From a virus, in the IMG/VR virus record IMGVR_UViG_3300011878_000001, positions 1 through 35,502 of that record: a stretch of DNA of 35,502 nt. One strand, given 5' to 3'. Below, in pieces: positions 3,159 through 33,946 of the stretch (its first letter is position 1; each line of letters starts with the position of its first letter). A model generated the notes under the pieces. The model made no database searches and was not told the DNA's origin. It saw nothing but the letters and a program-made list of their open reading frames with translations. Made by a program: the position numbers and the translations under genes.

Positions 3159-3225
3159 AAAAAAACCCTATCGTTGGTTGATAGGGTTACTGTGGGGGTA
3201 TGGGTGTTTGGGTTTGTTGGGTGTT
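3159..3225 (-). terminator. Box-terminator module copy 1 (tR'-like, between late regulator and late operon)
   Basis: Minus-strand reading: AACACCCAACAAACC (3225-3211), a 22-nt spacer, stem AACCCTATC/GATAGGGTT (3188-3164) with a 7-nt loop, T7 (3165-3159), then ATG at 3158. Confidence 0.7.
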
Positions 3226-3305
3226 TAATTCACTCCGAATACTGAAAAAAGAATACAAGCCAATCCAAAACCAAATAACGCGCCAAGCGCAAATTCACTA
3301 TTCAA
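3225..3305 (-). CDS. Possible 26-codon hydrophobic mini-ORF (TTG start), very uncertain
   Basis: TTG at 3305 preceded by GGGAGATTGGAAG. Encodes LNSEFALGALFGFGLACILFSVFGVN. Its TAA (3227-3225) abuts the conserved box, as the stop codons of real genes do at the other copies. Too short to judge. Confidence 0.15.
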   Translation of the reverse strand: MNSEFALGALFGFGLACILFSVFGVN

Positions 3306-3754
3306 CTTCCAATCTCCCGATCCAACTCATCAATCACCTGATCACACAGGCCGCCGTCTTCAAATATGTCCAGCTGCCCGATCTTGTACTTGTATGTCAT
3401 CCATTCGCCTTCTAACGGATAACGTATAATTCCTGTCTCCATACGCCATAACTCGATAAATGCTGCGCCGTTGTCGTAGTTCGGGATTCCACCACGTGCC
3501 CATTCAGACACAGTGGAAGCACCAGACACAGGCAGAAGGAATGCAATCTTTTCATGCGTCCAACCTAAACGACTCAGATCCAGGATCATGCGATTGAAGT
3601 CTGGACGTTTGTAGTTGCGCATCTTTAACTTGAACTCTTTGACCTTTTTCTGGGTGTTGAGATTGATAAAACGCGCGCGCGCGCGAGGGTCGTTCGTATA
3701 AACCCCATTTACTCCACTTCCGCCGACCAGCTGCAGCTCACTTGAACTTCCCAT
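3302..3754 (-). CDS. Putative late-gene regulator (HTH protein at the lambda Q position)
   Basis: The track ORF starts at TTG 3760. ATG at 3754 has a better SD (GAAGGGG 6 nt upstream). HTH-like segment WTHEKIAFLLPVSGASTVSEWARGG. It is the last gene of the early-right operon, directly upstream of a terminator and the late genes. I recognised no similarity to lambda Q. Confidence 0.35.
   Translation of the reverse strand: MGSSSELQLVGGSGVNGVYTNDPRARARFINLNTQKKVKEFKLKMRNYKRPDFNRMILDLSRLGWTHEKIAFLLPVSGASTVSEWARGGIPNYDNGAAFIELWRMETGIIRYPLEGEWMTYKYKIGQLDIFEDGGLCDQVIDELDREIGS
3672..3685. repeat. (CG)7 dinucleotide tract inside the regulator gene
   Basis: acgcgcgcgcgcgcgagg encodes RARAR (codons 26-30). 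Confidence 0.95.
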
Positions 3755-3795
3755 TTGCAACCCCTTCTAATCCCAAACTACGGTTATTAATTTTT

Positions 3796-4308
3796 TTAAA
3801 GTTCCCAAACTTTTAAACTAATCATTCCACCTGGTACCACGGCGCCACGTTTCACAATTAATTCATCAAATTGCTCATCGTCTTCACAAAATCCACATTT
3901 CACCAAGGAATCGATTGTTGCTTTCAAGTGGTTATCGATGTCCCGTTTCTGGTGTGTAGGGAAATGAAAAATAACTTCCAGTTTTAATCGTGTTGTCAGC
4001 CGTAATGCCGGGATCAGGGCAATAACAACGGCATGAAAATCTCTCGCCTTGTCACTTAACCTCATGCCCTTACCGTAACGTTCCCAATAGTGATTGACAC
4101 TCGGTGGCGTTGTGGCAATTTCACATGACAAAACCAGTTCTTCTTCATAGTCCGTATTTCTCACTGATTTCGCGTCTACGGCGTTTTTCTTTGATTTCTG
4201 TACCTTTGCTTGGTTTTGTTGTTTAGTGCGCTCCTGAGAAGTTTTAGCCCTGCTACGGTGGATTTTTAAGTGTGTTTGTAAGTACTCTTCACTCCATCTC
4301 AATGTCAT
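3796..4308 (-). CDS. rusA: RusA-family Holliday junction resolvase with a basic N-terminal extension
   Basis: C-terminal ~110 aa carries RusA-like patterns (PPSVNHYW, RDIDNHLKATIDSL, DDEQ). The first ~60 aa are K/R/Q-rich. ATGA overlap with the upstream gene. Confidence 0.7.
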   Translation of the reverse strand: MTLRWSEEYLQTHLKIHRSRAKTSQERTKQQNQAKVQKSKKNAVDAKSVRNTDYEEELVLSCEIATTPPSVNHYWERYGKGMRLSDKARDFHAVVIALIPALRLTTRLKLEVIFHFPTHQKRDIDNHLKATIDSLVKCGFCEDDEQFDELIVKRGAVVPGGMISLKVWEL

Positions 4309-4772
4309 GCTGCCATTTCCTTTTGTTTGATCCTGACTGCATTCTGTTTTTCCAGTTCTTCAATCTGATCCATAACTGCAAGGATTCTCTGATACTCAAC
4401 TGTGGTCAGTGGGCATTTACGCTTAGGTGTCAGGCAGGCACGAATACGTGGCAGTGGTATTCCAGTGATTTCAGCAAGAAAAGTACGTCGCGGCTTCTTG
4501 GTTTGGCTCTTGTTGGCCCAACGTACCAAGGTCATCACCTGGTGATCAGTAGCAAGTCTTGGTCTCTTTGATTCAACCGTTGAGCGTTTAGGACGTGGCT
4601 TCACTGCACAGCCTGGTAACGGTTTGATCTTTCCACCACGTTTAAGAAACTTGATCAGTTCATCGTCCAGTTCTTCACGCAGTTTTTCTTTCTTCACATC
4701 CGGTGCAGTTGCTTTCATCGCTGCACGTTCTGCTGCTACATGATTTAAAAATTCTTCTCGTTCAACTCTCAT
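4305..4772 (-). CDS. Hypothetical basic protein (possible DNA-binding)
   Basis: The track ORF begins at GTG 4790. ATG 4772 (MRVEREEF...) is preferred because it sits in a TGAAATG junction with the proposed upstream small ORF. Lys/Arg-rich. Confidence 0.5.
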   Translation of the reverse strand: MRVEREEFLNHVAAERAAMKATAPDVKKEKLREELDDELIKFLKRGGKIKPLPGCAVKPRPKRSTVESKRPRLATDHQVMTLVRWANKSQTKKPRRTFLAEITGIPLPRIRACLTPKRKCPLTTVEYQRILAVMDQIEELEKQNAVRIKQKEMAA

Positions 4773-4773
4773 T

Positions 4774-4935
4774 TCACGCCCCGATTTCACGAAATTTATT
4801 TAGAAAGTTTTTATTCTTTAAGCCTACGTATTGGCACCAACCCCATATTTCCCGCCAGTAAAACCAGTCTCCGTTCAGGTTTCGCCAGTAGGTGCCGTCA
4901 GATTCGATATGTGTTGCACCTGGTGGTTTGTTCAC
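4774..4935 (-). CDS. Possible small Trp-rich protein (53 aa, GTG start)
   Basis: It fills an otherwise unexplained 140-nt gap. GTG at 4935 overlaps the upstream stop as GTGA, the same arrangement as the 87-aa gene at 5195. Sequence VNKPPGATHIESDGTYWRNLNGDWFYWREIWGWCQYVGLKNKNFLNKFREIGA. Below the ORF-track size cutoff. Confidence 0.3.
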   Translation of the reverse strand: MNKPPGATHIESDGTYWRNLNGDWFYWREIWGWCQYVGLKNKNFLNKFREIGA

Positions 4936-5195
4936 GCTACACCTGCCTGCATGGCCGTTTTAATTTCCTCTCTGAGGTCTTTGAGCCACACGTAATCGAA
5001 ATAAATCTTGTCCAAGTCCATGTAAGGCAAAAATTCATGTTTCTTTTCGTGGTACAGGTACACATGACCATCAAGTACCGCAAAGTATTTTTGCAGTTGA
5101 GGAAAATACCCATCAGGACATGGCGCATTTGTTAAAACCAAAGCAGCTATCATTTCAGCAGGACCTTGGCCACCACATAATTCAATTAAACTCAC
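4932..5195 (-). CDS. Hypothetical protein (87 aa)
   Basis: GTG start overlapping the stop of the P-like gene (GTGA). Operon orientation. Confidence 0.5.
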   Translation of the reverse strand: MSLIELCGGQGPAEMIAALVLTNAPCPDGYFPQLQKYFAVLDGHVYLYHEKKHEFLPYMDLDKIYFDYVWLKDLREEIKTAMQAGVA

Positions 5196-5794
5196 ACCCC
5201 ACCCCCTGCGCTTTTCCCTACACGTTTCACCATTGCAGCCAATTCAGGCGGACACGGCACACCAGATCTCGGTGCATAGTTATGGGCAAGCTGCTTGACC
5301 TGTGGTTTTACCCACATTTCCTGCACACGGCCTTTTTCCTTGGCTTTCTGTAGATAATCTTCGTAAATATCTTTGAACGCTCTGTGTGCTGCTTTCTGGC
5401 CTTCCACGTTGATGATGTGCTGTACTTCATCAAGTGCACGCTTAGCCAATGTCGTGATCTTATTGGTTGGATCTGCTTCAAAATTCAATGCTTTGGCCCA
5501 TGCTTGTTCAGCTGTCCACCAATCGCCGTCATGCACACACCAAGAACGAAACTCTGGAAGTGATGGGCACCATTTTTCAGAATTCATACGCTCTAAGCCA
5601 CGGCGTAATTCTGCAGGTTTCAAGCCATTCAAAACCGTACAGACAGTGAATTGCAGCTCCGCTGGAGTGATATTTCCGTATTTTTTATCGAACATTTCAC
5701 CGTACAGTGCCTGCATCCGGCCTAAGACCTGATCTGCAATCTCAGCTGGAAAATCAACAACGAATGCGTCCTGGAATAACTGGATATTGCTCAT
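5192..5794 (-). CDS. Replication protein, lambda P-like (helicase loader family)
   Basis: 200 aa immediately downstream of the O-like initiator (ATGA overlap). The pattern NGLKPAELRRGLERM...WCPSLPEFRSWC resembles the replication protein P family (from memory). Confidence 0.6.
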   Translation of the reverse strand: MSNIQLFQDAFVVDFPAEIADQVLGRMQALYGEMFDKKYGNITPAELQFTVCTVLNGLKPAELRRGLERMNSEKWCPSLPEFRSWCVHDGDWWTAEQAWAKALNFEADPTNKITTLAKRALDEVQHIINVEGQKAAHRAFKDIYEDYLQKAKEKGRVQEMWVKPQVKQLAHNYAPRSGVPCPPELAAMVKRVGKSAGGGV

Positions 5795-6687
5795 GATTCA
5801 CCTCGTGCAACTACGCCTTGGCCATAGCGATGGCGTTTTGGTTGTTCAGCCTTAGGTTGTTTTGGTTCTGCCTTCGGTTTTGGTGCCTGATAGTTCTTCA
5901 TCCACTTCAACCAGGTGGTCATCCACTTTTGAGAAGTGCGTTCAGGTTTACCCACTGACCACTCGCACAGTTCTTTCAGCTGAACCAATACGATTTCTTG
6001 AGACAGGTTTGGAAAGCTCACAGCTGCTTGAGCCATAAAATCCTGTTTGATTGGGTAAGTACCGGTTAAATCCTTCAGCGTGTACAGCTTTTGATCGTCA
6101 GAGTGGTAATCAATAAAATTCAAAGCACCGCGATTCTGAGCAACAAAATCGGACGGCGCTTTATTCTTATTATTTTCTAAAGGATCTATAGAAGTATCTA
6201 TTGTGTGTTCCCCTAGTGAACTAGTTACTGGTGTCGTAGGTGAACTAGTTTGGTTCACTGGTGGAACTGGTGTTGTAGGTGAACTAGTTCCCTTAGTGAA
6301 CTGATCTTTGATAGAAACCTCATTTAGACGGTAGGATTTCATGCCCTGTTTTCCACTAGCAATGACTGTAATAACGCCGTATTTAATAAGCTCCTTTAGG
6401 CCAGCAGACACAGTTTTACGACCAAGTTGTCTTGCACCTGGTAGATCACACCCTTGTAGCTGGGAGTAACTAACAAAATCTGACTCTTTGTTATGTCCGT
6501 TAATGCGGTTTTCCAGCTCCGCATATACATTGCGTGCCGCATCACTAAGAAACGGCCAGACTTCTTTTCGATACAAGCGACTAGACATAACATAGCCCTG
6601 ATCGAACTTATCGCTATACATGCTTTTCCCAGCCCCTTGTGCCGGTTGCGAAGGCTTCTTAAACGGAATTACTTGTGCAGTATTCAT
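5791..6687 (-). CDS. Replication initiator, lambda O-like (winged-helix N-terminus), with the origin iterons inside the gene
   Basis: Start at ATG 6687 (GGAGG 11 nt upstream) is preferred over the track start at 6741. wHTH-like region ARNVYAELENRING...LGRKTVSAGLKELIKYGVI. The central iterons encode TSSPTTPV repeats. Confidence 0.65.
   Translation of the reverse strand: MNTAQVIPFKKPSQPAQGAGKSMYSDKFDQGYVMSSRLYRKEVWPFLSDAARNVYAELENRINGHNKESDFVSYSQLQGCDLPGARQLGRKTVSAGLKELIKYGVITVIASGKQGMKSYRLNEVSIKDQFTKGTSSPTTPVPPVNQTSSPTTPVTSSLGEHTIDTSIDPLENNKNKAPSDFVAQNRGALNFIDYHSDDQKLYTLKDLTGTYPIKQDFMAQAAVSFPNLSQEIVLVQLKELCEWSVGKPERTSQKWMTTWLKWMKNYQAPKPKAEPKQPKAEQPKRHRYGQGVVARGES
6214..6305. repeat. Origin-type iterons TAG(G)TGAACTAGTT, 3 copies plus one degenerate copy
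   Basis: Copies at 6214-6226, 6237-6250 and 6276-6289, plus 6294-6305 (TAGTGAACTGAT). ACTGGTG spacers are also repeated. An AT-rich stretch at 6160-6203 is adjacent. Confidence 0.7.
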
Positions 6688-6737
6688 AGCTTCACAACCT
6701 CCCCGATACGTGTTAAATTCAACATTCGTTACATGCC

Positions 6738-7043: not shown

Positions 7044-7056
7044 ATTCCCTGCCCCT

Positions 7057-7275: not shown

Positions 7276-7301
7276 GATTTTTCTCCTAATTAATAAACCA
7301 A

Positions 7302-7367
7302 TTATTAGGCATTCCTTATTTTTAATCAATAGGAATACCTAATTTATTTCATGTTAGGATTTCCTAA
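7302..7367. promoter_or_regulatory. OR-like operator cluster with a PR-like promoter
   Basis: Three 14-bp palindromes: TTAGGCATTCCTTA (7305-7318), ATAGGAATACCTAA (7329-7342), TTAGGATTTCCTAA (7354-7367), spaced 24 and 25 bp centre to centre. Minus-strand promoter: -35 TTGATT (7329-7324), 16-nt spacer, -10 TAATAA (7307-7302). Confidence 0.7.
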
Positions 7368-8047
7368 TGAAAACACTTGCTGAACGCTTAAAATATGCCA
7401 TGGAAGTTTTGCCACCTAAGAAAATTAAGGGGGTCGAACTTGCACGCGCCGTTGGGGTAAAGCCACCATCCGTTAGTGATTGGCTTTCTGGTAAATCGAA
7501 AAATATGGAAGGCCCGAACCTGATTCGTGCAGCCCAGTTTTTAAAGGTAAATTCAAAATGGTTAGCTACAGGTATCGGCAAACCTACTGATGAAGAAGCA
7601 AAAACTGAGTTTAGTAATGTAAGTTTTAATAATTTACCTTTTATAGAAATTCCAGTTTTAGACTATGTTCAGGCCGGTCTTTTTGGGACCGTTGAATATG
7701 ATGGGATTAACCCTAAAGGTCGAACCTATACAACTTATCAAACCACAAAGCCTTCCGAAGTCTTCAGCTTAATTGTTGAAGGAATGAGCATGGCACCTAA
7801 TTTTTTACCTGGTGACTCACTCGTGATTGACGCATCGATAGCTCCCCAACCTGGATCATTTGTAGTTGCTCAGAACGGGGCTTATGAAACCACTTTCAAA
7901 AAGTATCGCGTAATTGGATATGATGAATATGGACGTGAAGAATTTGAATTAGTTCCATTAAATCCAGATTATCCAACAATATCTTCAAGAGACCATAAAA
8001 TATCGATCATTGGGGTAATGGTTCGCCATGAGCGAAGCTATAAATAA
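7367..8047 (+). CDS. cI: CI-type repressor: XRE HTH plus S24 LexA-like autopeptidase
   Basis: N-terminal HTH VELARAVGVKPPSVSDWLSGKS. Putative Ala-Gly cleavage site in VQAGLF. Ser/Lys dyad context GMSMAP...FKKY. Divergent from cro. Confidence 0.85.
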   Translation: MKTLAERLKYAMEVLPPKKIKGVELARAVGVKPPSVSDWLSGKSKNMEGPNLIRAAQFLKVNSKWLATGIGKPTDEEAKTEFSNVSFNNLPFIEIPVLDYVQAGLFGTVEYDGINPKGRTYTTYQTTKPSEVFSLIVEGMSMAPNFLPGDSLVIDASIAPQPGSFVVAQNGAYETTFKKYRVIGYDEYGREEFELVPLNPDYPTISSRDHKISIIGVMVRHERSYK

Positions 8048-8059
8048 TAAGAGAGCAAG

Positions 8060-8716
8060 ATGAAAAAATTGTGGAGTTATGGAACTTCCACGCCAATTCA
8101 AAGGATTGGTGTAATTGTTCTAGGGGTGGGATTGTTGTCACTTTTCTCATGGATGATTAAAGAAGATCTGAGCTTTGAGGATCTATTCAATAGCTACTAC
8201 CTGCCAGGTAAAAGAGATTCCATGTTCTTTCATCTGTTCTTTTATTTTATTCCTCTAGGGCTCTTAATGTCCTGGGGGTATCAGGTTTTAGTAAAAACCC
8301 AAGAGTGGATCTTTGGAAAAACCAAAGAAAATAAAAAACCACTGAAAGATCAAAAGCTATATTTTAAAGATAATATGGCGGCCTATGATTTTGCTTCCAC
8401 TATTTACCCGGCTACACTTAACTTAAATACAAGCTACGTCGGATTGATTAAAGATGTGGTTTTGACAACTAACGAACGTTTTCAGTACACAATTGAGCTG
8501 GCAAACAGAGACACAACAATAAAAGTTTATGGATACAATGATGAGAACAGCCAATCTATACGGCTAGGTAACTTAGTTCTTTGGCGTTGTGAAAAGCCAG
8601 TTTCTAACAAAAACCATCTTAACATTGAAGCGCTAGGAACTATCATTGCTACCCTTCAGCCAGTATTCGACCCAAATCATGGCACTTGGTTGATTCAAAG
8701 TAATTTTGTCAGATAA
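8060..8716 (+). CDS. Two-TM membrane protein co-transcribed with cI (candidate superinfection-exclusion or abortive-infection protein)
   Basis: 12 nt after the cI stop, with no terminator in between. TM helices IGVIVLGVGLLSLFSWMI and FFHLFFYFIPLGLLMSWGYQVLV, then a ~135-aa soluble domain. AT-rich by eye. Followed by a strong terminator. Confidence 0.7.
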   Translation: MKKLWSYGTSTPIQRIGVIVLGVGLLSLFSWMIKEDLSFEDLFNSYYLPGKRDSMFFHLFFYFIPLGLLMSWGYQVLVKTQEWIFGKTKENKKPLKDQKLYFKDNMAAYDFASTIYPATLNLNTSYVGLIKDVVLTTNERFQYTIELANRDTTIKVYGYNDENSQSIRLGNLVLWRCEKPVSNKNHLNIEALGTIIATLQPVFDPNHGTWLIQSNFVR

Positions 8717-8718
8717 TT

Positions 8719-8756
8719 CACCCAATCAAATGACCGCCATCTAGGCGGTTTTTTTA
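8719..8756 (+). terminator. Box-terminator module copy 6 (end of the cI operon)
   Basis: CACCCAATCAAAT (8719-8731), stem ACCGCC/GGCGGT (8733-8738 and 8744-8749), loop ATCTA, T7 (8749-8755), then ATG at 8756 (5-codon mini-ORF). Confidence 0.8.
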
Positions 8757-8783
8757 TGTCAGTAAAAAAATAATGTGAAAAAA

Positions 8784-8825: not shown

Positions 8826-8856
8826 TTGCCTTGTACCTAATAAACCGAGAACACCC

Positions 8857-8973: not shown

Positions 8974-8981
8974 AAACAAAA

Positions 8982-9013: not shown

Positions 9014-9032
9014 GCAAATATGCGAGATAAGT

Positions 9033-14813: not shown

Positions 14814-14838
14814 AAAAGTCCTCACTAGGAGGACTTTT
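14814..14838 (-). terminator. Terminator ending the late/lysis operon
   Basis: Stem AAAAGTCCTC/GAGGACTTTT with loop ACTAG. It overlaps the last codons and stop of the o-spanin. T-runs on both sides, so it may act in both directions. No CACCCAA box. Confidence 0.7.
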
Positions 14839-15889: not shown

Positions 15890-16137
15890 TAGACTTCCTC
15901 TCTCCATTGCTTGATCCGGAGCTGGTGAATCTCATTAGCACGTTTATTCTCAAGTCGCTTGTAGTACCAATTCACAGCAAAGCCACCCAATGCAATAGCG
16001 ATACCCAACCAAGCCAGGACGTCGATTGATGCAAGGTATGCCACGAAACCAGAAGCAGCCCCTGCATATGTTGTTTTTGAAGCAGCGGAGGAAACGGTTG
16101 CTGCCATTTCCATTACTGCTGATTTCTGATCGGACAT
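15889..16137 (-). CDS. Holin (82 aa, two TM segments, alternative starts M1/M9/M11)
   Basis: TM segments GFVAYLASIDVLAWLGIAIALGGFAV, a charged C-terminus, and a position immediately upstream of the endolysin. Confidence 0.7.
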   Translation of the reverse strand: MSDQKSAVMEMAATVSSAASKTTYAGAASGFVAYLASIDVLAWLGIAIALGGFAVNWYYKRLENKRANEIHQLRIKQWREEV

Positions 16138-16160
16138 GCCGCCACCATTATTTTTGACAT

Positions 16161-16214
16161 TAAAAAACCCTGATCTAATTAAAGGTCAGGGTTGAAGGTG
16201 GTTTGTTGGGTGTT
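16161..16214 (-). terminator. Box-terminator module copy 2 (between acyltransferase and holin)
   Basis: Minus-strand reading: TAA, CACCCAACAAACC (box 16214-16200), stem AACCCTGA/TCAGGGTT (16193-16166), T6, then ATG 16160 of a 15-codon mini-ORF. Confidence 0.75.
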
Positions 16215-17295
16215 ATTTATTAGATATTCTTTTGCCTATTTGTATAAATCGATCTTCAATGTGTTTTCTGGTAAACATCGATATAAAGATCACTACCCCC
16301 AATATTAAAAATGGTAAAATATTATTCAATAAAAGATTATTTAAATCCATCATCCATATGCCATTAACTTTGGAAGCAAAATTAAAACCAAGTTTTGAAA
16401 GCAATACAAAAACTGAAAGCAATACAGTGATAATAAAATAATGCACTATATAAATAGAAAATGAGAGTTCTCCCATTTTTTTAAAGAACTTAATCTTTAA
16501 TGCTTTTGATATCACACCATTCTCATGAGCAAATGCATACACTACAAAAGAAAATAAGAACGGTGCTATAGCAGATCCATAAGGAATTTCTTTAAACTGC
16601 GTAACAAACCACACTACAATAAAGACTAAAATAATCTCAAGAAACTTACTGCTAATCTTTACTTTCTGGTAGATCATACAGGAAATCACTCCAGCAAAAA
16701 AGCAGCTCAAGCCACGATAAGCCCAATGTGTTGTGAGCTCATAATTAAATATCAAGCCCAACACACCAAATATCATTAAGATAAAACTAAAGATAAAAAT
16801 ATTTTTTCTAAATACTAATAATCCCACAAGAAATATCATGTATAGGTAAAATTCCACACTAATTGACCAGGCAGGACCATTAAATGACAGAGCATCAAAA
16901 GATGGAAGCCAAGCTTGTATAAGTATTAAATTGGGAATAATTTCAGAGTATGCGTTCTTTCCAGTAAATGGCTCTATCGGAAAATTTAAATGAAATATCT
17001 TGCTTAACACTAATAACGTTAAGTGCATTAAAATAAATACTGATAGCATAAACCAATGCATAGGAACTATTCTAAAAAACCTACTAACCAAATATTTTTT
17101 TGTATCAATTTTAGATTTATTTAGATAAGAGTGGGCTAAAACAAAACCGCTTAATACGAAGAAAAATTCAACAAAAATGCTGCTATTTCTAAAAAAATTA
17201 AGATCAGTAAATGCACCTAATATATTCAAATGAAAAAAAACTACGAGGATTGCACACACGCCTCTTAATGAATCTAGAGCTTCAAACCTTCCCAT
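16213..17295 (-). CDS. Acyltransferase-3 family integral membrane protein (O-antigen/capsule O-acetylase-like), a lysogenic-conversion candidate
   Basis: 360 aa with about 10 hydrophobic segments. N-terminal LDSLRGVCAILVVFFH and later FFVLSGF motifs typical of acyltransferase_3 (Oac-like) proteins. GC about 22-30% on sampled lines, versus roughly 45% or more in neighbouring genes (counted by eye). Confidence 0.8.
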   Translation of the reverse strand: MGRFEALDSLRGVCAILVVFFHLNILGAFTDLNFFRNSSIFVEFFFVLSGFVLAHSYLNKSKIDTKKYLVSRFFRIVPMHWFMLSVFILMHLTLLVLSKIFHLNFPIEPFTGKNAYSEIIPNLILIQAWLPSFDALSFNGPAWSISVEFYLYMIFLVGLLVFRKNIFIFSFILMIFGVLGLIFNYELTTHWAYRGLSCFFAGVISCMIYQKVKISSKFLEIILVFIVVWFVTQFKEIPYGSAIAPFLFSFVVYAFAHENGVISKALKIKFFKKMGELSFSIYIVHYFIITVLLSVFVLLSKLGFNFASKVNGIWMMDLNNLLLNNILPFLILGVVIFISMFTRKHIEDRFIQIGKRISNK

Positions 17296-17383: not shown

Positions 17384-19990
17384 TTACAGAAGTTTTACTG
17401 TTAGTGTTCCGCTTGCTAGATCAACTGCACCAAGACCTGTGTTTCGGAACTTCACCGTAACTGTATTTGCAGCACTAACAACAGCGGTAATCTCAATATC
17501 TGCGTTATACACACTAAAAGTAGCTAAAACACCATCCCCCAGAGCAGCATTGGGCACTGTAACATCGCGCGTTACTGCTGAATTAGCAGGGATGCTTGGG
17601 GGGTCGTAGGTAAGTGAAACTGCGCGAGAATCATTCCCAGAGTAGCGAAGGGAGCCGCCTGTACCAACCGTAATTAAAGGCTTACCTAGAAATGTATTTC
17701 TTGTGACAGTTGCTTGAATATACTTGTTACCCAGCGCAGAGATGAGCTTCTCCCCTGTATAAAAACCTGACAATAATGTTACACCACTTATTGTCACTGG
17801 AACGATGGTAGTCACGCCATCATCTTTAATAGTGATAAAATTGGATAGAGTCCCAAGAACATTACCACCCAGTACAGTTAAGCTTGTAGCGTAACCCTCA
17901 AAAAACCAGCCCTTAGTTACTTTTGGGTATTCTATAAGAATGTCTCCGTATTTAACATTACTATTCCTTAGAAAGCCGTTGACGCTTGAGAACGTACAGT
18001 TAATACCATGAAACTTGTTTACAATAGCACCCCCCACGAAAGGACACGCATAGGGCATCGCAACATTATCAAAAAAGACATCGTTGTACGTGAAATTGTA
18101 AGAGTTAATATAGTCTTGCAGCTCTGAATTATAAATCTTAAGCTTATCAACGCCACACCAAAATATTGTTTTCCCGATGCGATGGTTCCTGATAATCAAA
18201 TTATTAATATGTACATCACTCGATAATTCAGTTGGGGGAGCCACATACCAACGAACCTCTCCACGTACATCATCAAGAATAAGTGTATCAAGTGTAGGTT
18301 TACCCATGTTTTGCCGAACAACAGCAGCATACGGTGTTCCATCTGTGTATTTTACAGAGGAGATATTCTTAAACTCTTGCCGACTTTGCTTGTAAACAAA
18401 TCCACCAGTGCCGACTTCTTGTTCCTCTTGGAATAAATTTGTAACCAATAGCCTGCCCGATCCTGTATGCAGGTCATTACGAAAAACACCATGCACATTC
18501 TCAGCATACAGATCATCGCACCAGTGCCAGAGATAAAGACCCCAGTATTCACCTTTCGAATTGGTTATACGCTGACGCTCACACCAAAAATTTGTTGCCA
18601 AGTTGTAGGAGATGGCAGGAGAAATAAAGTTTACATTATTGTACTCGATAGAGTACCCAGTCATAAACCGTTGATTATCAGGCCAAGCAACCGGAAATTC
18701 ACCGTGCCATGCCGCAACAAACCCGTGCATACTTCCATCGCCATCACCGCTTGTTGGATGCAACAAGAAATCACTAACGTAAGGGTCGAAAGTTACATTA
18801 TCCAGCTTAAATACGCCACGCCCGTCAGTTTTAGGCAAAAACCCAATACAGATTGTGTTATAGCGCAACTGCTTTGTTTTATCGTGCGTAATATGGAGGT
18901 TCTTAATGATGTGTGGCTTATTAAAAATCATACCCTTTAAGAATCTATAAACACCAGTCTTAATAGCCTGTTCAAGATTCGGTGTCATGATCTTAAAGTT
19001 CAGGAAGTCGATTTCATAAACACGACTATCAGCATAGGCGATCATTCGGCGCAGTTCTTCAGTCTGATCTAGCGTTGCATTATCTAAAATCCCGAACTTT
19101 CGGATGTCAAAAGAATCACGAAAAACCGCATGTAGACCATTCGCAAGAGGGATTGAATAATCAGTGCTTGTTGCTGAGATAAGATAGACAGCCCCACCAT
19201 CATCAAATATATTGTGATAGCCTTTGGTGCCAACAATCACCCCGTCTGTGAGCTTTATATCGGCGATCATTTGTGCCACCGTCGTATAGAAATAAGCAGT
19301 GTTGTTGTTGATCTCCTGCTGATTTTTTCCATTCGCATCCACTACTAAACTAGCTAACCACCCCTTTTCAGCAGCAATGTTCGCAATACCTTGCAGTAGA
19401 TGTTTGTAGTAACTGTCAAGCTGCTGAAGCGACACACCCTGTTGATTGATAAGATTTTCAAAATAAGAATTTTGGTTATTATTCTGCCGATCAACGTGAG
19501 TGCGAAGATTATCAATATCTGAAGATAGTAAGCCATCCTGCTGATTCACATAATTGCGCAAATCGGAAATGATATTGCGGACAAGCTGATCCTTATTATC
19601 GATATAGTCTTTCTGCTCGCCATGCAGCCGATCCACATAGATCCGCAGAAGCATGTCTGCTACACCAAGCTCCTGTAGTTTCAACCAGACGCGATCGATA
19701 TCACCATTCAGCACCTTAGGTGTCATTGAATTATTGGTTGATTGGTAGTTTGTGGTGCGAGACATAGGCGTATTGCGCTGCAATACAATTTTTGAACCAG
19801 CAGCTGGCGCTACACTAAACGTCACACTATTGGTATTTGCATTAAAAGACCATGCTGATAATTCAGGAACTATGCCATCAATAGTGACCTTTAGATGATC
19901 TTTAGATTCACAGATAAATTCCAACGTAAATGTCTTGGTTACACCATTCCCATCATATTCTTTATACGGTGTCTGTTCTGGTACAGCCAT
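17384..19990 (-). CDS. Tailspike/tail fibre: T7 gp17-type N-terminal adaptor domain plus a probable polysaccharide depolymerase body
   Basis: The first ~115 aa (YKEYDGNGVTKTFTLEF...VLQRNTP...LNGDIDRVWLKLQELG) match the T7 tail-fibre N-terminal pattern (from memory). Coiled-coil neck. The long beta-rich central region is typical of capsule or O-antigen depolymerase tailspikes. Confidence 0.8.
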   Translation of the reverse strand: MAVPEQTPYKEYDGNGVTKTFTLEFICESKDHLKVTIDGIVPELSAWSFNANTNSVTFSVAPAAGSKIVLQRNTPMSRTTNYQSTNNSMTPKVLNGDIDRVWLKLQELGVADMLLRIYVDRLHGEQKDYIDNKDQLVRNIISDLRNYVNQQDGLLSSDIDNLRTHVDRQNNNQNSYFENLINQQGVSLQQLDSYYKHLLQGIANIAAEKGWLASLVVDANGKNQQEINNNTAYFYTTVAQMIADIKLTDGVIVGTKGYHNIFDDGGAVYLISATSTDYSIPLANGLHAVFRDSFDIRKFGILDNATLDQTEELRRMIAYADSRVYEIDFLNFKIMTPNLEQAIKTGVYRFLKGMIFNKPHIIKNLHITHDKTKQLRYNTICIGFLPKTDGRGVFKLDNVTFDPYVSDFLLHPTSGDGDGSMHGFVAAWHGEFPVAWPDNQRFMTGYSIEYNNVNFISPAISYNLATNFWCERQRITNSKGEYWGLYLWHWCDDLYAENVHGVFRNDLHTGSGRLLVTNLFQEEQEVGTGGFVYKQSRQEFKNISSVKYTDGTPYAAVVRQNMGKPTLDTLILDDVRGEVRWYVAPPTELSSDVHINNLIIRNHRIGKTIFWCGVDKLKIYNSELQDYINSYNFTYNDVFFDNVAMPYACPFVGGAIVNKFHGINCTFSSVNGFLRNSNVKYGDILIEYPKVTKGWFFEGYATSLTVLGGNVLGTLSNFITIKDDGVTTIVPVTISGVTLLSGFYTGEKLISALGNKYIQATVTRNTFLGKPLITVGTGGSLRYSGNDSRAVSLTYDPPSIPANSAVTRDVTVPNAALGDGVLATFSVYNADIEITAVVSAANTVTVKFRNTGLGAVDLASGTLTVKLL

Positions 19991-21650: not shown

Positions 21651-21989
21651 TTAACTCGGACGCTGTTTTTTACGTTCGTTAAGTGCAGCCGTCACATCGG
21701 CCACTAATTTAGCCGCTTGTGCTTCTGGTGATACCTTCCGACCAGTCCCATCACCCGCTGTCTGCTCATCATCAAGCAATACGCGGTTTAATTTCTCCAT
21801 ACAGGTCAGGGCTTCTTTCGCACCTTTGTATAACCAGACCTTATCTCCACGGCCTTTCTTGTCGAAAACATCCTGACCATAAGCTTCGGTCATCAGATCC
21901 ACGGCATCCGATCCAGCCATTTCCATACAGAGTTTTAATTTCTCTATTGTTTCAGGTTTTAAAAAACGTAACTTCTTTTCATCTGACAT
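21651..21989 (-). CDS. terS: Terminase small subunit (by position, T7 gp18 equivalent)
   Basis: 112 aa, 3 nt upstream of terL. No motif recognised. Confidence 0.45.
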   Translation of the reverse strand: MSDEKKLRFLKPETIEKLKLCMEMAGSDAVDLMTEAYGQDVFDKKGRGDKVWLYKGAKEALTCMEKLNRVLLDDEQTAGDGTGRKVSPEAQAAKLVADVTAALNERKKQRPS

Positions 21990-22049
21990 AAAAAATCCCC
22001 CGTATATAAGCCATATATACAGGGGGTTCGGTTGGGCTTAATTGGGTGT
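21990..22049 (-). terminator. Box-terminator module copy 5 (degenerate box) before terS
   Basis: Minus-strand reading: ACACCCAATTAAGCCCAACC (22049-22030), stem CCCCCTGTATATA/TATATACGGGGG with a 1-nt bulge (22026-21997), A, T6, then ATG 21989. Confidence 0.7.
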
Positions 22050-22054: not shown

Positions 22055-24580
22055 TTACTCCACGATACGATCAAAATCAGGCATCTGAATATCACCGACA
22101 TCATCACCCCAGAAGCGCGTCCGGTCGTGCTGACGTTCGGCCTTACGCAATAATTTTTCACGGTATCCAGGTGCAATCATGTCCTGCATTTCATCAAATA
22201 CCATTCGATTAGTCGCGGCTTTGGTGTACCACAAGTTTTGCGCAGGGATCTTGTTCTTGAGTAAGCGGAATGCTTCATTAGATGCGTTGGTGTCCTTGTC
22301 ATCGTAGTACTGCGTCAAGTTCCCCACAGTCAAACCAAGCACAGCTTTAACATCTGAACCCAATGGACCAACCATAAAGTCCGAAGCACTACGTCCTGAA
22401 GTATCTGTACCCGCAACCAGAATGTCACCAAGAATGGATAGACCACCACCCTGAACAGCTGAACGTGTCCAGAAATTCATAGCCTTTTGCGGATCATCAC
22501 TATCCCACATGGTTGAAGGATCGTTACCATTGGCCAGCTCTTTCAACTGTACAGCTAATGCGCCAAGTACTGTGGTCATGGCAAATAATGAAACGCCATA
22601 AGCTGCTTTGCCTTTCACACCATCCTGTGCCATTGCACGTGAACCGTGGCGCATCAAGAATGCCGCGGGGAATGACTTAAACTGAAGCATAGATTTGATT
22701 ATTTCACCCATACCTGTGCCTTTCCGTTGCCCTGCACTCATCCATGTACGTTCGCGCAATCCAGCTTCAACCACAGCCATTCCCTGTTCATCCAGCAAGT
22801 GTGCCTGAAATTGTGTGGCCACTTCATCACGCACCTTTTGTGGGTCGCCAAACCTAGTTAAATCACTATCTGGAATTTCATAGATTGAACGTGCTGACAT
22901 TAGCTGGTTGCCTTTACGATCCACCACCGGATCAGCCAGACGCATGACTTCCCATGCTCGTTCGTTTAGTCCGGTTTTTTCCATTAGCTCGCGGTCTAAC
23001 GCGTCTAAATCATCCCAGCTTTTAGACCGACTTAGACGACCATACTTCTCCATAAGCATCTTGGTAAAGCCGACTTTTGAAGCTGCTGTGAGTGCATTTA
23101 GGCCAGATATACGCATAACCTGTGAAGCAATACCACTGGATACCCGAGCCAGTTTCTGTGATTTGCCATGCACTGAGGTCAATCCATCATCTGACCAACG
23201 AGCAATAGAGCCGAGCATTTCCTCTGTGGCCAGACCTAAGCTGTGCGCCAGCTGCCGATCTTCTTTATTTTTCGGATTGAGTTGTGAAATCAGCTCACCA
23301 AAAGTTTTACGGTAGGCAATACCATGGATCGATGCTGTCTTTGCAATCATGGCTTGATCGGTGACGGATGAAATTGTGGTGCCGCCCAGCATGGATGCTA
23401 CGTTCATTGATCGGTATGCTAAACCCAAATTGGCAAGCACTTCGGATTGCGGTGTGTTCTGTCCGGAGAATTCATCAAACATCGTTTGTGCACGTTTACG
23501 GCTCTTGCCTGTCGTGTTCTGATCCAGACCTTTTAGCCAGTCTTTTTGCTCGGCTGCATCCATCAGAATGCGCATGGCATTACGCGGATTACTTCCCAAA
23601 TTTTCTACCATAGCAATATCTTTAGATAATCCATTTACGTGCGCCTCGATCAGATCCACAAACGGCATACCACCGAACTCAGCCTGATATTCCATCCATG
23701 ACTCAGCATCTTTAAAATGTAGTACCCGGCTTTCAGAGTGACGACTGGTGACTTTTGAATTACCACCAAAGGACTGCCGGCCAATCTCTGTTTTATTGGC
23801 CCCGTTGCTGCTGAGCGTGTCAAACGAGTGCTCAAGCAGGTCGCGGATCTCCTGCTGTGAATAATACGTGCCATCCTCATGCACATATTTGGAAGTGTTG
23901 ATCAGGCTTTCCGCTTTCTGCACCCATGCCTGTTTCCCGGCCTTAACGATCTTTTCCAGGCTATGCGTCTGCGGTAAACCCCAATCATCCAGCTTGCCAA
24001 TATCACCACCGGCACGGTTAAAGCGTTCACGCATACCCTCAAAGACTTCACCCATTTTGTCGCTGATCTTCTTGGCCAGCGGATCGCCGGTACTGTCATT
24101 GAAGCGTTCACGGACAATTTTTTGCACCAGTTCTGCATCAGTAAATACACCTAAACTGCCTTTGATATTTGTGTAGAAGTCCACCAGCTCACCACGGTAA
24201 ACGGAGGCAATCGCACGTGCTTTGGAGTCTAGAGATTGAATGCCAGACATATCACCATGTGGGGCAACCATGCGGTCCACGACTTCGGATGCAGATAAGG
24301 TCGGATGATCAAGCTGTGCAAGGTTTTTGTTCTGAGTGAGAATGTCACGTGCGGCAATGGCATGCTTTCGTTTTAATTGCGCCTGAATATCCTGTGCCAC
24401 AAACTCACCGGCTTTCACCAGTTTTTCAGCATCGGATAAATTGCGCCAGTTCTGAATATCCTGTTTGGCCAAAGACTTCATTGCATCCTTGATCCGGTTT
24501 TCAATGTCGGTGGCTTCTTGCTGGTTTAAAGTTGCCTTGCCGAGTGCCTTTGCTACGGCGGCCTTACATTGGTCTTTCAT
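22055..24580 (-). CDS. Large alpha-helical virion/ejection protein (841 aa) with C-terminal hydrophobic segments
   Basis: It lies within the internal-virion-protein block. Hydrophobic stretches AAYGVSLFAMTTVLGALAV and GGGLSILGDILVAG near the C-terminus. No enzymatic motif recognised. Confidence 0.45.
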   Translation of the reverse strand: MKDQCKAAVAKALGKATLNQQEATDIENRIKDAMKSLAKQDIQNWRNLSDAEKLVKAGEFVAQDIQAQLKRKHAIAARDILTQNKNLAQLDHPTLSASEVVDRMVAPHGDMSGIQSLDSKARAIASVYRGELVDFYTNIKGSLGVFTDAELVQKIVRERFNDSTGDPLAKKISDKMGEVFEGMRERFNRAGGDIGKLDDWGLPQTHSLEKIVKAGKQAWVQKAESLINTSKYVHEDGTYYSQQEIRDLLEHSFDTLSSNGANKTEIGRQSFGGNSKVTSRHSESRVLHFKDAESWMEYQAEFGGMPFVDLIEAHVNGLSKDIAMVENLGSNPRNAMRILMDAAEQKDWLKGLDQNTTGKSRKRAQTMFDEFSGQNTPQSEVLANLGLAYRSMNVASMLGGTTISSVTDQAMIAKTASIHGIAYRKTFGELISQLNPKNKEDRQLAHSLGLATEEMLGSIARWSDDGLTSVHGKSQKLARVSSGIASQVMRISGLNALTAASKVGFTKMLMEKYGRLSRSKSWDDLDALDRELMEKTGLNERAWEVMRLADPVVDRKGNQLMSARSIYEIPDSDLTRFGDPQKVRDEVATQFQAHLLDEQGMAVVEAGLRERTWMSAGQRKGTGMGEIIKSMLQFKSFPAAFLMRHGSRAMAQDGVKGKAAYGVSLFAMTTVLGALAVQLKELANGNDPSTMWDSDDPQKAMNFWTRSAVQGGGLSILGDILVAGTDTSGRSASDFMVGPLGSDVKAVLGLTVGNLTQYYDDKDTNASNEAFRLLKNKIPAQNLWYTKAATNRMVFDEMQDMIAPGYREKLLRKAERQHDRTRFWGDDVGDIQMPDFDRIVE

Positions 24581-24642
24581 AATAAAAATGCCCAGATAAT
24601 TTTCATCATCTGAGCATCTTTTAAAATTGGGTTTGTTGAGTG
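24581..24642 (-). terminator. Box-terminator module copy 4 (after the acidic 89-aa ORF)
   Basis: Minus-strand reading: CACTCAACAAACC (24642-24630), stem ATGCTCAGAT/ATCTGGGCAT (24617-24588, one G.U pair), TTTTATT, then ATG 24580. Confidence 0.7.
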
Positions 24643-30758: not shown

Positions 30759-30760
30759 GT

Positions 30761-31210: not shown

Positions 31211-31211
31211 G

Positions 31212-33323
31212 TTATTTCTCATTAATTGACAACTGCATGGTGATAGCTTGCAGGTGAAATGGCAGAGGTTTGTTGTGTGTAATAATTAAAGGCACTTTGT
31301 GCAGGTCTTCCCAATGCCCGCCTTCAATCAGGTGATAGCCGGTGTATGGTTTTTTGTAGTCCAGTGGATTGTCATCAAAAGAGAGTGTTTCAATCAGCTC
31401 GCCGTTAATTGACGCCCCTAGCGTTTTATTAAAAAAGAATGCTGTCCGGTCTACCTTTGCTTTATGCAGCATGCTCGACAATGGCGCTTGATTCAGTTCC
31501 GGCGGGAACAGTTCAGCCACACATTCAAAGGTCTGGCCAAAAGAAAGTGTTTTGCCCACCAGATCTGCATCAACCTGCAGGTTACTTCCTGCATCTTCAC
31601 AAGCAATCTCGGTCACGGTGTCATTTTCAGCGTAATAGCATGCAATGTTATTTAAATGATTGAACTGTGCTTTATTCACTGTGTTTGCAGTCAGATTGAT
31701 ATTTAGCTGGGCATCGGTGTAAGCATTGAAAGAAAGTTCTTCCAGATAGGTACTGCCCTTACGTTCAACCAACATGAATGCCTGATCAGATCCTAGCGCT
31801 GTTGGTAATGAACAGATACTTTTGACTGATCCACCAAAGTCATGCTGTGCCCATGCAAGCACTTCCTGATCACGGTTAAAGGTGATTGACGCCACCTTGC
31901 CATCACCCAGCACACACCACACGATTGATTCAGGCTCTTGCTGATAGGTAATTTCATTAATACCTTGATGCTCTTCACCAATATGAGAAGCCAGTGAGCT
32001 AATCTCTGGTGATACCAGACCATCCACTTCATAACGATACGTTAAAGCACGCATACGCTCACCACCACGTTGTACAAATAGCAGCTCATTCCCCACACGC
32101 TCTGGACGTGTTACCGCATAGGCCCCATATGCTGAATGTTCAATAATATTTACAGTGGTTGGTGTCAGGCCGCCATCTGAATCGACCATGAATTCACCGC
32201 CTGAAGTTAGACACACTACGCCACGCTGTGCTTCAAGAAATAAAATTGAATTGGATAAACCTGATGCCGAAACGATACTGAATGCATCACTATCTTCTGT
32301 GGTTTCAAGAAAATTACCGTTTGCTCCAACGGCACTAAACCAGATTTTGTTAGGTGCTTTTTTCGTGTTGGCCAGAACTAAACGCTGTTTAAAATAGGTG
32401 CAGCAACGTGGATAACCATCTATAGCATTGAATGCCGGTGGCAATATCCCCCATGAGCGTTCAATCGCCTTGATATCTGCATCCAGTTTCTTAACTACCT
32501 CTCCCTCTACGCTATTTTCGTTGATAAACCGGGTAATTCTGATAAGCCCGCCATTTACCTCGATATAACTACCGACATCATCTGCAGAAAAAACATCGCT
32601 ACCAGAGGACGCCAATAGATGCCAGTAGGTAGGCTCTGTTCTTGGATTCTTGCCTGTACCAGCCAAAATAGCCTTGTAGTATTCAGTGACGGTTTTTTGC
32701 CCCCAGCCATTCGGAACAGTGTAGGTAACCCTGACTTCATCATCCACAGCATATGACGCCACATTACTCCATGGAGAAGTAGCGTCGACATTGAACGTTA
32801 CCCGCACACCGAGTTCTTTTGAGCTTGGCTTGCCCTTGCGGAATGGGTATCTGGCATTCTCAGAGTTAACAGGTTGATGATCAAAATTAAAAACTGAAAA
32901 TAACCAGTTCGCAAATTCTTCATCAGAACGTAAGCGCTGCACTGGATGAGCACTATGCGTAATGAACATTTCAAAACGGTACTGTACATACTGAATATCT
33001 GGTAGCTGTGAGTCGGCATAAGGTGTATCAAGCGTTGCTACAACTTCCCGGGTACGTGGGCAGTAAACCATTACGCTGAGATGCTTGAAGATCAGCATGA
33101 ATACGCTACTGGAATTCACAATGAAGGGAATTAGCCGGATAGCACCCGCCATCAAACCACGGTTAAACGTACCAGGACGTTTACGCACCCCACCTTCAAC
33201 CAGCGGAAAAACATTCTGCAATCGTTTTGCGCCGTTGGAGTACTGCTGAATATCAGTCCGGGTATACAGTGCAGTTGATAATTCACCTGCACTGAAATTG
33301 TTTTTCATCACAACAGTTTTCAT
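31212..33323 (-). CDS. Tail tubular protein B (nozzle), T7 gp12-like
   Basis: 703 aa. The N-terminus NNFSAGELSTALYTRTDIQQYSNGAKRLQNVFPLVEGGVRKRPG parallels T7 gp12 KNLKGGISQQPDILRYPDQG...GLQKRPP (from memory). ATGA overlap with the tubular A gene. Confidence 0.7.
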   Translation of the reverse strand: MKTVVMKNNFSAGELSTALYTRTDIQQYSNGAKRLQNVFPLVEGGVRKRPGTFNRGLMAGAIRLIPFIVNSSSVFMLIFKHLSVMVYCPRTREVVATLDTPYADSQLPDIQYVQYRFEMFITHSAHPVQRLRSDEEFANWLFSVFNFDHQPVNSENARYPFRKGKPSSKELGVRVTFNVDATSPWSNVASYAVDDEVRVTYTVPNGWGQKTVTEYYKAILAGTGKNPRTEPTYWHLLASSGSDVFSADDVGSYIEVNGGLIRITRFINENSVEGEVVKKLDADIKAIERSWGILPPAFNAIDGYPRCCTYFKQRLVLANTKKAPNKIWFSAVGANGNFLETTEDSDAFSIVSASGLSNSILFLEAQRGVVCLTSGGEFMVDSDGGLTPTTVNIIEHSAYGAYAVTRPERVGNELLFVQRGGERMRALTYRYEVDGLVSPEISSLASHIGEEHQGINEITYQQEPESIVWCVLGDGKVASITFNRDQEVLAWAQHDFGGSVKSICSLPTALGSDQAFMLVERKGSTYLEELSFNAYTDAQLNINLTANTVNKAQFNHLNNIACYYAENDTVTEIACEDAGSNLQVDADLVGKTLSFGQTFECVAELFPPELNQAPLSSMLHKAKVDRTAFFFNKTLGASINGELIETLSFDDNPLDYKKPYTGYHLIEGGHWEDLHKVPLIITHNKPLPFHLQAITMQLSINEK

Positions 33324-33886
33324 TGATAGCGCACTCCCATCAGATTCGATTGAAAGTCAGCTGCAAAGTCTTGTGCTGGACGTTCCTGACCATTGATGGC
33401 ACGTGCCTGCTTGAGCATATTGTTTAGTTTTTGCCATGCACTGTCTGATTCAGCCTGGCTGCCTGTGATCGGCTTGGCTAACTTGTGCACCAAGTACAGC
33501 ACCATGCATTCAGCAAACAATGAATCCCACAAATCCTCATTATCTTCATCAGCCACATACTGCAGGTTGATCAGATTGGTATTAGCCAGGATATGGCGAC
33601 CTTCAATTTCATAATTCTCAACACCAGCACTGATGACGCGCACAAAGTCGTGTGGCAGTGGAAAGGAATTGTGATAGCCAAAGGTGGGATGTGTGCTCAC
33701 TGGTGCCAGTTGCGTACGTTTCTTGGCGAATGACCAAGGATGCATCCGCAATAAAGCCTTGCGTGTAGTGTCGTAGATCGATGCACAACGGCGTGCATTT
33801 TCGTTATTGTCGTCAAAAGACAGGATTGACTTAGCCCCGATCAGGCTTAGCGCTTCATTGCAGATGGATACGTTTGTAGAAGTCAT
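33320..33886 (-). CDS. Tail tubular protein A (adaptor), T7 gp11-like
   Basis: 188 aa. ICNEALSLIGAKSILSFDD...RMHPWSFA parallels T7 gp11 VNDILASIGEPPVSTLEGD...RGWTFN (from memory). Confidence 0.65.
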   Translation of the reverse strand: MTSTNVSICNEALSLIGAKSILSFDDNNENARRCASIYDTTRKALLRMHPWSFAKKRTQLAPVSTHPTFGYHNSFPLPHDFVRVISAGVENYEIEGRHILANTNLINLQYVADEDNEDLWDSLFAECMVLYLVHKLAKPITGSQAESDSAWQKLNNMLKQARAINGQERPAQDFAADFQSNLMGVRYQ

Positions 33887-33946
33887 AAAAAAGCCCTCAA
33901 GTTTTAATGATCTTGAAGGCTCTCTTGGTTCGGTTTGTTGGGTGTT
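33887..33946 (-). terminator. Box-terminator module copy 3 (before tail tubular A)
   Basis: Minus-strand reading: TAA, CACCCAACAAACC (box 33946-33932), stem AGCCTTCAAG/CTTGAGGGCT (33921-33892, one G.U pair), T5, then ATG 33886. Confidence 0.75.

Follow-up and report, generated by a model that had tools for sequence, protein, structure and literature searches.

The 35,502-nt viral record IMGVR_UViG_3300011878_000001 (the window) is the complete genome of a temperate Acinetobacter podophage with lambdoid regulation and T7/epsilon15-like virion genes, and its late region is punctuated by a repeated cassette in which a C/A-rich box of about 13-16 nt, (T)AA-YAC(C/A)CAACAAACC, leads into a terminator hairpin. 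We regard this as a genuine regulatory cassette common to a whole family of phages; the terminator half is well supported by the sequences compared, and the part played by the box is one that we infer. Each cassette may be a composite stop-and-restart unit in which an insulating terminator is joined to a late promoter or activator site. This is the reading that we favour, tentatively, as one that falls a little short of being probable.

Five copies of the box lie between genes, all on the sense strand and each with a stable hairpin and then a T5-7 tract downstream. At four of these five junctions (J1, J2, J4 and J5) the ATG of the next gene stands directly after the T-tract. Another copy, at J3, lies in the 3' end of the tail tubular protein B gene and had gone unnoticed in an earlier note on this DNA. 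Boxes and hairpins, the latter with their predicted folding free energies (dG, in kcal/mol), are located as follows.

3211..3225, minus strand: J1 box, AACACCCAACAAACC, an exact 15-mer and the first conserved element upstream of the first late gene
3159..3188, minus strand: J1 hairpin (3164-3188) and T-tract (3159-3163), dG -12.1
33932..33946, minus strand: J2 box, an exact 15-mer, before the tail tubular protein A gene
33887..33926, minus strand: J2 hairpin (core 33892-33921) and T-tract, dG -18.6; tail tubular protein A ATG at 33886
31267..31279, minus strand: J3 box, CACACAACAAACC, in the last codons (T-H-N-K-P) of the tail tubular protein B gene
24630..24642, minus strand: J4 box, CACTCAACAAACC, before the gene for an 841-aa virion protein
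24583..24621, minus strand: J4 hairpin (core 24588-24617) and T-tract, dG -21.4; ATG at 24580
22030..22048, minus strand: J5 box variant, CACCCAATTAAGCCCAACC, before the 112-aa TerS-like gene
21990..22025, minus strand: J5 hairpin (21997-22025) and T-tract, dG -18.7; ATG at 21989
16200..16214, minus strand: J6 box, an exact 15-mer before the lysis genes; the acyltransferase TAA overlaps it
16160..16193, minus strand: J6 hairpin (16166-16193) and T-tract, dG -12.8; the holin gene starts at 16137 with its own Shine-Dalgarno (SD) sequence

At J1 the box is followed by a half-repeat, AACACCCATACCCCC, at about 3193-3207, and the first late gene (115 aa) begins at an ATG at 3158, with an SD-like AGGG inside the 3' arm of the hairpin; an SD-like G-run of the next gene occupies the same arm at J2, J4 and J5. 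The TAA of the gp49-like gene overlaps the box at J2. The J3 box lies 56 nt upstream of the next gene and has no terminator after it. At J6, unlike J1, J2, J4 and J5, an extra 25 nt separate the cassette from the SD of the following gene. The minimum-energy folds of all five intergenic cassettes leave the box unpaired.

The earlier note had described six post-stop boxes, each coupled to a hairpin. The identical 15-mers that it gave at 3211-3225, 16200-16214 and 33932-33946 and the one-mismatch copy at 24630-24642 were recovered, as was the insertion-bearing copy at 22030-22049, where most relatives carry the canonical box and one subclade the same CACCCAATTAA(G/C)C variant. Relatives read TACCCAACAAACC or close variants at J4. 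All five hairpins fold where the note had placed them (dG between -12 and -21 kcal/mol), each running into a T5-7 tract. Every copy has a stop codon 0-7 nt before it, and a TAA often overlaps the start of the box. The box had six matches at two or fewer mismatches, against a mean of 1.1 in shuffled sequence (none of 100 shuffles reached six), and a search of the genome for CACCCAA returned seven occurrences, of which five lie between genes in the sense orientation. The claim of six copies stands for the five intergenic ones and not for the sixth, which lies in the cI operon (8719-8731), has four differences from the consensus and is not conserved as a box in relatives that share the 218-aa gene upstream.

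8719..8749, plus strand: doubtful cI-operon copy, an ordinary terminator after CACCCAATCAAAT; relatives with the same upstream gene read CACCTAATGAAAT

Nor is the likeness that had been seen beyond the U-tract, between the copies at 16130-16215 and 8714-8775, conserved in relatives. Tiny open reading frames (ORFs) begin at the ATG after the T-tract at these two places, one encoding MSVKK and then a stop (8750-8775), the other 15 codons long (16138-16160). A look-alike at 35424-35436, in the scaffold gene, was set aside as a protein motif only, since its synonymous sites vary freely. A full-text search of the literature for the box sequence gave no match, and no Rfam covariance model matched the window at its gathering score.

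Conservation was followed in two collections of relatives. A scan of viral contigs with the 15-mer yielded about 40; to avoid circularity, relatives were collected again by protein, with 44 loci for tail tubular protein A, 80 for TerL and 80 for the candidate regulator described below. In 198 protein-anchored loci (3.1 Mb), unique contexts with an exact box numbered 67 on the late strand and none on the other, and at one mismatch the counts were 131 and 2. The relatives, Alcaligenes phage Piluca and Acinetobacter phage TPWB-05 among them, carry the cassette at the same five types of intergenic junction, that is before the first late gene, tail tubular protein A, the 841-aa protein, TerS and the holin, with the box consensus [CT]AC[CAT]CA[ACG][CT]AAA[CATG]C. 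In the protein search, the J2 box was present in 41 of 41 close relatives. In distant relatives, whose tail tubular protein A is 32-36% identical, an ordinary SD stands there without a box.

At every junction type homology sets in at the box. The genes upstream are unrelated from phage to phage, and their stop codons abut or overlap it. At J1, 47 unique relatives are homologous from the box onward and unrelated upstream of it, and no conserved promoter was found upstream of J1 in these 47. The J2 box follows several unrelated genes or, in two relatives without an accessory gene (L171 and L182), directly follows the capsid terminator; the J6 box is kept before different holins and after different upstream genes. 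The suggestion that the box marks module boundaries, probable sites of accessory-gene exchange, is borne out by these comparisons.

In L200 (about 8363) and L201 (about 4742), tandem box-hairpin cassettes surround an extra gene (MPTTKV...) in the interval between the capsid and tail tubular protein A genes, and this gene looks like a cassette-bounded insertion. Separately, one viral contig without protein similarity to the window (L095, 9700-9800) carries the exact 15-mer. There a short hairpin (CCACC/GGTGG), with T7 and an ATG after it, overlaps the box. The whole falls at what is predicted to be the 5' end of a tail-fibre-like ORF of 825 aa, called from 9717, of which the ATG after T7 (MLKGK...) is likely to be an alternative start.

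Outside the phage family the arrangement was sought in genomes with a pattern of box followed by a T6 run within 14-44 nt. This gave 53 matches, of which 11 were in Acinetobacter, all in prophages of this phage family. A host-wide motif was rejected: seven non-Acinetobacter matches that were inspected had no cassette context, and the remainder were treated as chance. A Chi-like hotspot is unlikely, with copies that are intergenic only and a conserved stretch of 13-15 nt. Concerted evolution of the box variants was likewise not seen, as variants are uncoordinated between the junctions of one genome.

The hairpins are well supported as canonical intrinsic terminators by comparison of their sequences. 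In the relatives their mean dG is -12 to -17, as against about -3 for shuffles, and the gap between stem and T5-7 tract is 0 nt in more than 90% of stems. The distance from the end of the box to the stem is characteristic of the junction:

J1: 23-24 nt
J2: 9-11 nt
J4: 13 nt (34 of 36)
J5: 8-10 nt
J6: 7-8 nt, with a T6 tract in 35 of 38

Each junction type has between 15 and 32 distinct paired stem-loops (23 at J4; 32 at J5, with 11-13 pairs). Across relatives the J1 hairpin has nine pairs, with 99% of cells paired and double-sided changes at two pairs, and pairing at J2 is kept in at least seven stem sequences, such as GCCCTCAAG/CTTGAGGGC, CCCGCTCAA/TTGAGCGGG and CCCATTCAC/GTGAGTGGG. RNAalifold on a MAFFT alignment of J2 gave no consensus structure, which we attribute to misaligned arms, and per-sequence folding was used instead. 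The view that the box is a functional, orientation-dependent signal tied to covarying terminator hairpins holds up.

Box and terminator do not always occur together. Two box-less terminators noted earlier, one after the capsid gene (34343-34374) and one after the spanins at the end of the lysis genes (14814-14838), were confirmed, and J3 is a box without a terminator. In the genomes compared, the presence of the box tracks the late gene that follows, not the terminator.

In 71 unique relatives collected by protein homology, the codons of the J3 box show no synonymous variants (ACA 51 of 51, CAC 63 of 63, AAC 57 of 57, AAA 71 of 71), whereas the same amino acids vary in codon elsewhere in the alignment (His, CAC 19 and CAT 40; Asn, AAC 17 and AAT 54). 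The codons at +11 to +22 past the box (CAC NTG CAA GCT/AGT) are also nearly frozen, with almost no synonymous variation at +17 to +22 (CAA, GCT/AGT). Escherichia phage vB_EcoM_APEC keeps the protein motif PLPFHLQA, with CAT and GCA where the relatives have CAC and GCT, and its codons at the position of the box, GAA CAT GAC AGA CCA, do not match it. This pattern of codon use indicates that the J3 box is under nucleotide-level constraint within a translated ORF.

A candidate for the factor that recognizes the box is encoded between the early genes and J1, and the earlier proposal that this protein of about 150 aa is the prime candidate partner still stands.

3302..3760, minus strand: candidate trans-acting factor, 141-152 aa, after RusA and before the late genes; matches phrog_17493

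The protein is present in every box-bearing relative, at 55-99% identity, and its deposited homologues are all annotated as hypothetical. No Pfam family matched at E <= 0.01, and a sequence-profile search of the PDB returned no entry. A first AlphaFold model was unusable, with a predicted local distance difference test (pLDDT) score of 52; a deeper alignment raised this to 77.5. In that model a core of about 55 residues resembles the DNA-binding helix-turn-helix (HTH) of the XRE/Cro-C1 type (E 0.3-1, target TM-score 0.6-0.7, root-mean-square deviation about 2 Å). Its structural neighbours include the P22 c2 repressor, C.Kpn2I and HipB, with scores that are weak but consistent, and XRE HTH proteins make up the best 50 of 210 PDB fold matches; none of these 50 is a Q structure. 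A (CG)7 run within the gene (3672-3685), flagged by the terminator scan, encodes an invariant PRARARF motif. Between the regulator stop codon and the J1 box (3226-3301, minus strand) lie a hydrophobic mini-ORF of 22 codons (VNLRLARYLVLDWLVFFFQYSE) and, at 3279-3291, a weak terminator-like hairpin; this stretch is not kept in relatives.

In the phage groups compared, box and regulator are distributed together:

Acinetobacter family, Piluca and TPWB-05: regulator present, box at the same junctions
Yersinia phage YeP4: a 32%-identical regulator homologue upstream of the late genes, with a different motif, CGGGAAACCGA
vB_EcoM_APEC: no regulator and no box, with tight junctions that lack cassettes

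The YeP4 (L374) homologue lies at 17464-17685. The YeP4 motif occurs in four exact copies and one near copy, all in the sense orientation and 36-78 nt upstream of late gene starts; as TAGTCGGGAAACCGAACGC, this late-strand-only motif is placed at 17958, 21352, 21464, 33001 and 34942. One copy has a terminator ahead of it, in another the motif leads into a hairpin, a T-rich run and an ATG, and one precedes a hairpin without a U-tract. The analogues of J1 and J5 have the order motif, spacer, SD-containing hairpin, ATG.

How then might the cassette work? Five strong terminators stand in a 29-kb late region, so that late expression needs either read-through or re-initiation, and besides the terminators the box appears to be the only other conserved element at these junctions. 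We favour a start signal at the level of DNA because the box tracks late genes, because at J3 it lies in a translated ORF and because it covaries with a protein of predicted DNA-binding fold; nothing conserved lies upstream of J1 either. The arrangement in one relative (L302, 8559-9829) points the same way: a gene for a 391-aa protein on the opposite strand and a bidirectional terminator stand between the regulator gene and J1, so that the late genes there would need a start of their own. Finally, with the SD in the 3' arm and the ATG abutting the T-tract at J1, J2, J4 and J5, read-through RNA would be poorly translatable, its SD locked in the hairpin.

On this basis the terminator half would insulate the downstream late module from upstream transcription, including that of accessory genes expressed in the prophage, and the box would be the DNA site of the phage's own late regulator (3302-3760), which would switch on the module downstream. 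With much less assurance, the geometry might be one in which the box takes the place of a -35 element (about -41 to -29), with a poor -10-like hexamer 16 nt beyond the box and initiation about 29 nt past it, inside the hairpin. Late transcripts begun there would lack the 5' arm, and would thereby escape termination and carry a free SD from the 3' arm. The late region would then consist of self-contained units, with J1 serving the head, J2 the tail tube, J3 the internal proteins, J4 the 841-aa protein, J5 the terminase and fibre, and J6 lysis; as a by-product, the cassettes could serve as conserved linkers for the exchange of accessory genes.

Certain fixed positions past the box would fit such a start. 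At +22 every sequence has T within five of six junction types; A is in the majority at +18 in four of six (100% within J1-J3 and 93% within J5) and at +29 in five of six. Several observations weigh on the other side. As a set, the fixed-distance columns are not significant (four agreeing against 1.9 expected, permutation P = 0.13). There is no sigma-70 -35/-10 consensus, and a promoter scan flagged no cassette: the box is unlike TTGACA, and the hexamer 16 nt past it agrees with TATAAT at two to five of six positions; its key A is missing at J4 and J6, and its key T at J5. The fold matches of the regulator are weak (E 0.3-1), XRE-type HTH proteins usually bind palindromes, whereas the box is asymmetric, and the box variants do not co-vary between junctions, so that no fine-scale co-evolution with the regulator is visible. 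A terminator downstream of the box is, moreover, also what would be expected of an antitermination signal. Large A/T-rich loops were discarded as support for a -10 element, since only J2 has a 10-nt loop and the others have 4-7 nt. A promoter for a phage RNA polymerase was rejected too, with no polymerase gene among the annotated proteins of the window.

Antitermination, which the earlier note had raised, remains a live rival, albeit an unlikely one. A late polymerase meeting the box, as nascent RNA or as non-template DNA, would acquire or renew a phage factor that suppresses termination at the hairpin, by a logic like that of nut, ops or the Q-binding element, repeated here at every internal terminator. 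At five intergenic junctions the box does stand, in the sense orientation, before an intrinsic terminator that begins 7-24 nt further on; the terminator at the end of the lysis genes, where read-through is not needed, has none; the candidate factor occupies the position of Q, after RusA and before the late genes; and the five strong terminators require read-through if they are not bypassed by re-initiation. Yet the strong capsid terminator within the late region has no box, so that local antitermination would fail there and a processive form would make the later boxes redundant. J3 supplies the converse case, and in YeP4 the motif lies once after a terminator and once before a hairpin without a U-tract. 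A Q-type module would need a conserved promoter upstream of J1, where none was found, and in L302 the convergent gene and bidirectional terminator intervene. The regulator matches no Pfam Q family and, as noted, no Q protein was among its best 50 of 210 fold matches. The box contains no boxA or ops consensus, and the SD would stay sequestered in the hairpin of read-through RNA. As for N/nut, the box does not resemble CGCTCTT(T)A, the hairpins differ in sequence and lead into a U-tract, and all copies lie in the late region.

A role in translation has a slimmer chance still. Here the box would be a ribosome standby or translation-enhancer site, or the site of a Com-like activator, at which a 30S subunit or an RNA-binding protein waits on the unpaired box until the SD hairpin breathes. 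The unpaired state of the box in every minimum-energy fold would suit this, as would the SD-like G-run in the 3' arm and the ATG abutting the U-tract at J1, J2, J4 and J5, and the same order of elements at the J1 and J5 analogues of YeP4. The box is fixed, however, while the equally A/C-rich spacer beside it drifts freely, so that composition alone does not explain its conservation; at J3 it is translated, at J6 the holin has its own SD downstream of the cassette, and the candidate partner has a modelled DNA-binding fold. Pairing with 16S rRNA was discarded as well: a partial complementarity of 8 nt is lost in natural box variants.

The least supported readings, each very improbable, are a rut-like Rho entry or Hfq-binding segment of the 3' untranslated region, acting as terminator back-up or as stabilizer of RNAs derived from that region, and a pure recombination linker. 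In favour of the rut and Hfq ARN-site roles, which the earlier note had proposed, the box is G-free, C/A-rich and placed right after stop codons and before a hairpin and U-tail, the usual Hfq module. These roles are not favoured, given a conserved J3 copy in a translated ORF with no terminator following, and both are disfavoured further by a box that goes with late genes rather than terminators and covaries with a protein of DNA-binding fold, and by the L302 arrangement, which separates the early operon from the J1 cassette. The untranslated C-rich stretch from stop codon to hairpin is in any case only 20-45 nt, as against about 60-80 nt for rut, the box has only two ARN triplets, the next ORF begins right after the terminator, the box goes with the downstream module and not with the 3' end of the upstream gene, and the Acinetobacter matches in the genome scan were prophages of this family only. 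A linker without regulatory role, spread by recombination between cassettes, would account for the variable genes that adjoin the box at J1, J2 and J6 and for the tandem cassettes of L200 and L201; the phage encodes RecT and an exonuclease, and recombination of this kind occurs among the PeSL cassettes of T4-type phages (PMC2839356). Against it, the 13-nt box is near-constant across genomes whose proteins are 55-75% identical, while the adjacent spacer drifts, which requires purifying selection; the synonymous sites of J3 are frozen, orientation is strictly sense, and the box is absent from phages without the regulator. Module exchange at the cassettes, as the earlier note had it, probably does take place, though probably as a consequence of the cassettes and not as their function.

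The composite stop-and-restart unit that we favour has its closest parallel in these same PeSL cassettes, which run from stop codon through a -35 box, a stem-loop that often lies between or over the promoter boxes and an SD to the ATG, and in which the stem-loop terminates and the promoter fires (Arbiol et al. 2010, PMC2839356; Comeau et al. 2014, PMC4122927). Both are repeated intergenic cassettes with the same order of elements (here at J1, J2, J4 and J5), and both have variable genes beside them; PeSLs serve as linkers in modular shuffling, a part that the present cassettes may share. PeSLs, however, have early promoters of sigma-70 consensus, whereas the cassettes described here have a C/A-rich box tied to a candidate late regulator and no -35/-10 consensus; they also lie in the late structural and lysis region of a temperate podophage, and their promoter activity is a prediction only.

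Phage promoters at which an activator replaces the -35 element include those of lambda cII at PRE, PI and PaQ, the middle promoters of T4 MotA, and the late promoters of Mu Mor/C and P2 Ogr. In each, a small DNA-binding protein of the phage, produced towards the end of the early programme, turns on several dispersed promoters through one non-sigma-70 upstream box, as the regulator would do here, and the position of the cII and MotA sites resembles the about -41 to -29 suggested for the box. No sequence or Pfam relationship between the regulator and these proteins was found, the box forms no clear direct repeat or dyad, and the sites in those systems are not all fused to terminators.

With lambda Q and PR'-tR' the window shares the order RusA, regulator, terminator, first late gene, the terminator standing immediately before the late genes; it differs in a regulator that is not of the Q family, in having no conserved promoter upstream of the terminator, and in having five to six sites rather than one. 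With T7 class III promoters it shares a homologous virion gene order and a short sense-strand motif before blocks of genes, J3 standing at the phi13 position (after gene 12) and the post-capsid terminator resembling T-phi; no phage RNA polymerase gene was found here, however, and the motif is unrelated to T7-type promoters.

If the favoured reading is right, every late module in a widespread and unstudied group of temperate Acinetobacter (and Alcaligenes) podophages would answer to one small regulator and a 13-nt box, accessory genes could be swapped without disturbing late expression, and the idea of a composite promoter-terminator would reach from T4-type early genes to the late genes of temperate phages. 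In practice the box could then be used as an annotation marker of late-module boundaries, and the cassettes would be compact candidate parts for insulated, inducible expression in Acinetobacter. Whether the logic is altogether new is more doubtful: it is conceivable that an XRE-like protein starts host polymerase inside a hairpin, making a stop/go element of about 60 bp, or that a non-Q antiterminator or Com-like translational activator is re-engaged before every internal terminator.

The two ends of the window (1-77 and 35426-35502) are identical over 77 bp, so that it represents a circularly closed, complete genome of 35,425 bp. Its lambdoid regulation genes include a Cro-like gene and the repressor gene:

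7367-8047, plus strand: cI

The early and lysogeny genes also comprise O-like and P-like replication genes, RusA, exonuclease, RecT and integrase. The virion module runs through portal, scaffold, capsid, tail tubular proteins A and B, internal proteins and the 841-aa virion protein, and is followed by TerS-like, TerL, tail fibre and lysis genes; no phage RNA polymerase gene is among the annotated proteins of the window. An early ORF of 161 aa (4305-4790, minus strand), of which Piluca and TPWB-05 have no homologue, resembles the SutA RNA-polymerase-binding domain, though at a level (E 7e-5) short of the Pfam threshold.

A near-identity DNA search of deposited phages matched no near relative, and relatives at the protein level are TPWB-05, Piluca, YeP4 and vB_EcoM_APEC. 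Piluca (L373), whose boxes are the same as those in Acinetobacter prophages, has a G+C content of 40.9%, closer to Acinetobacter than its host Alcaligenes faecalis would predict. In the window itself, a scaffold-like ORF of 225 aa crosses the circle junction, running on the minus strand from 559 via the ends to 35307.

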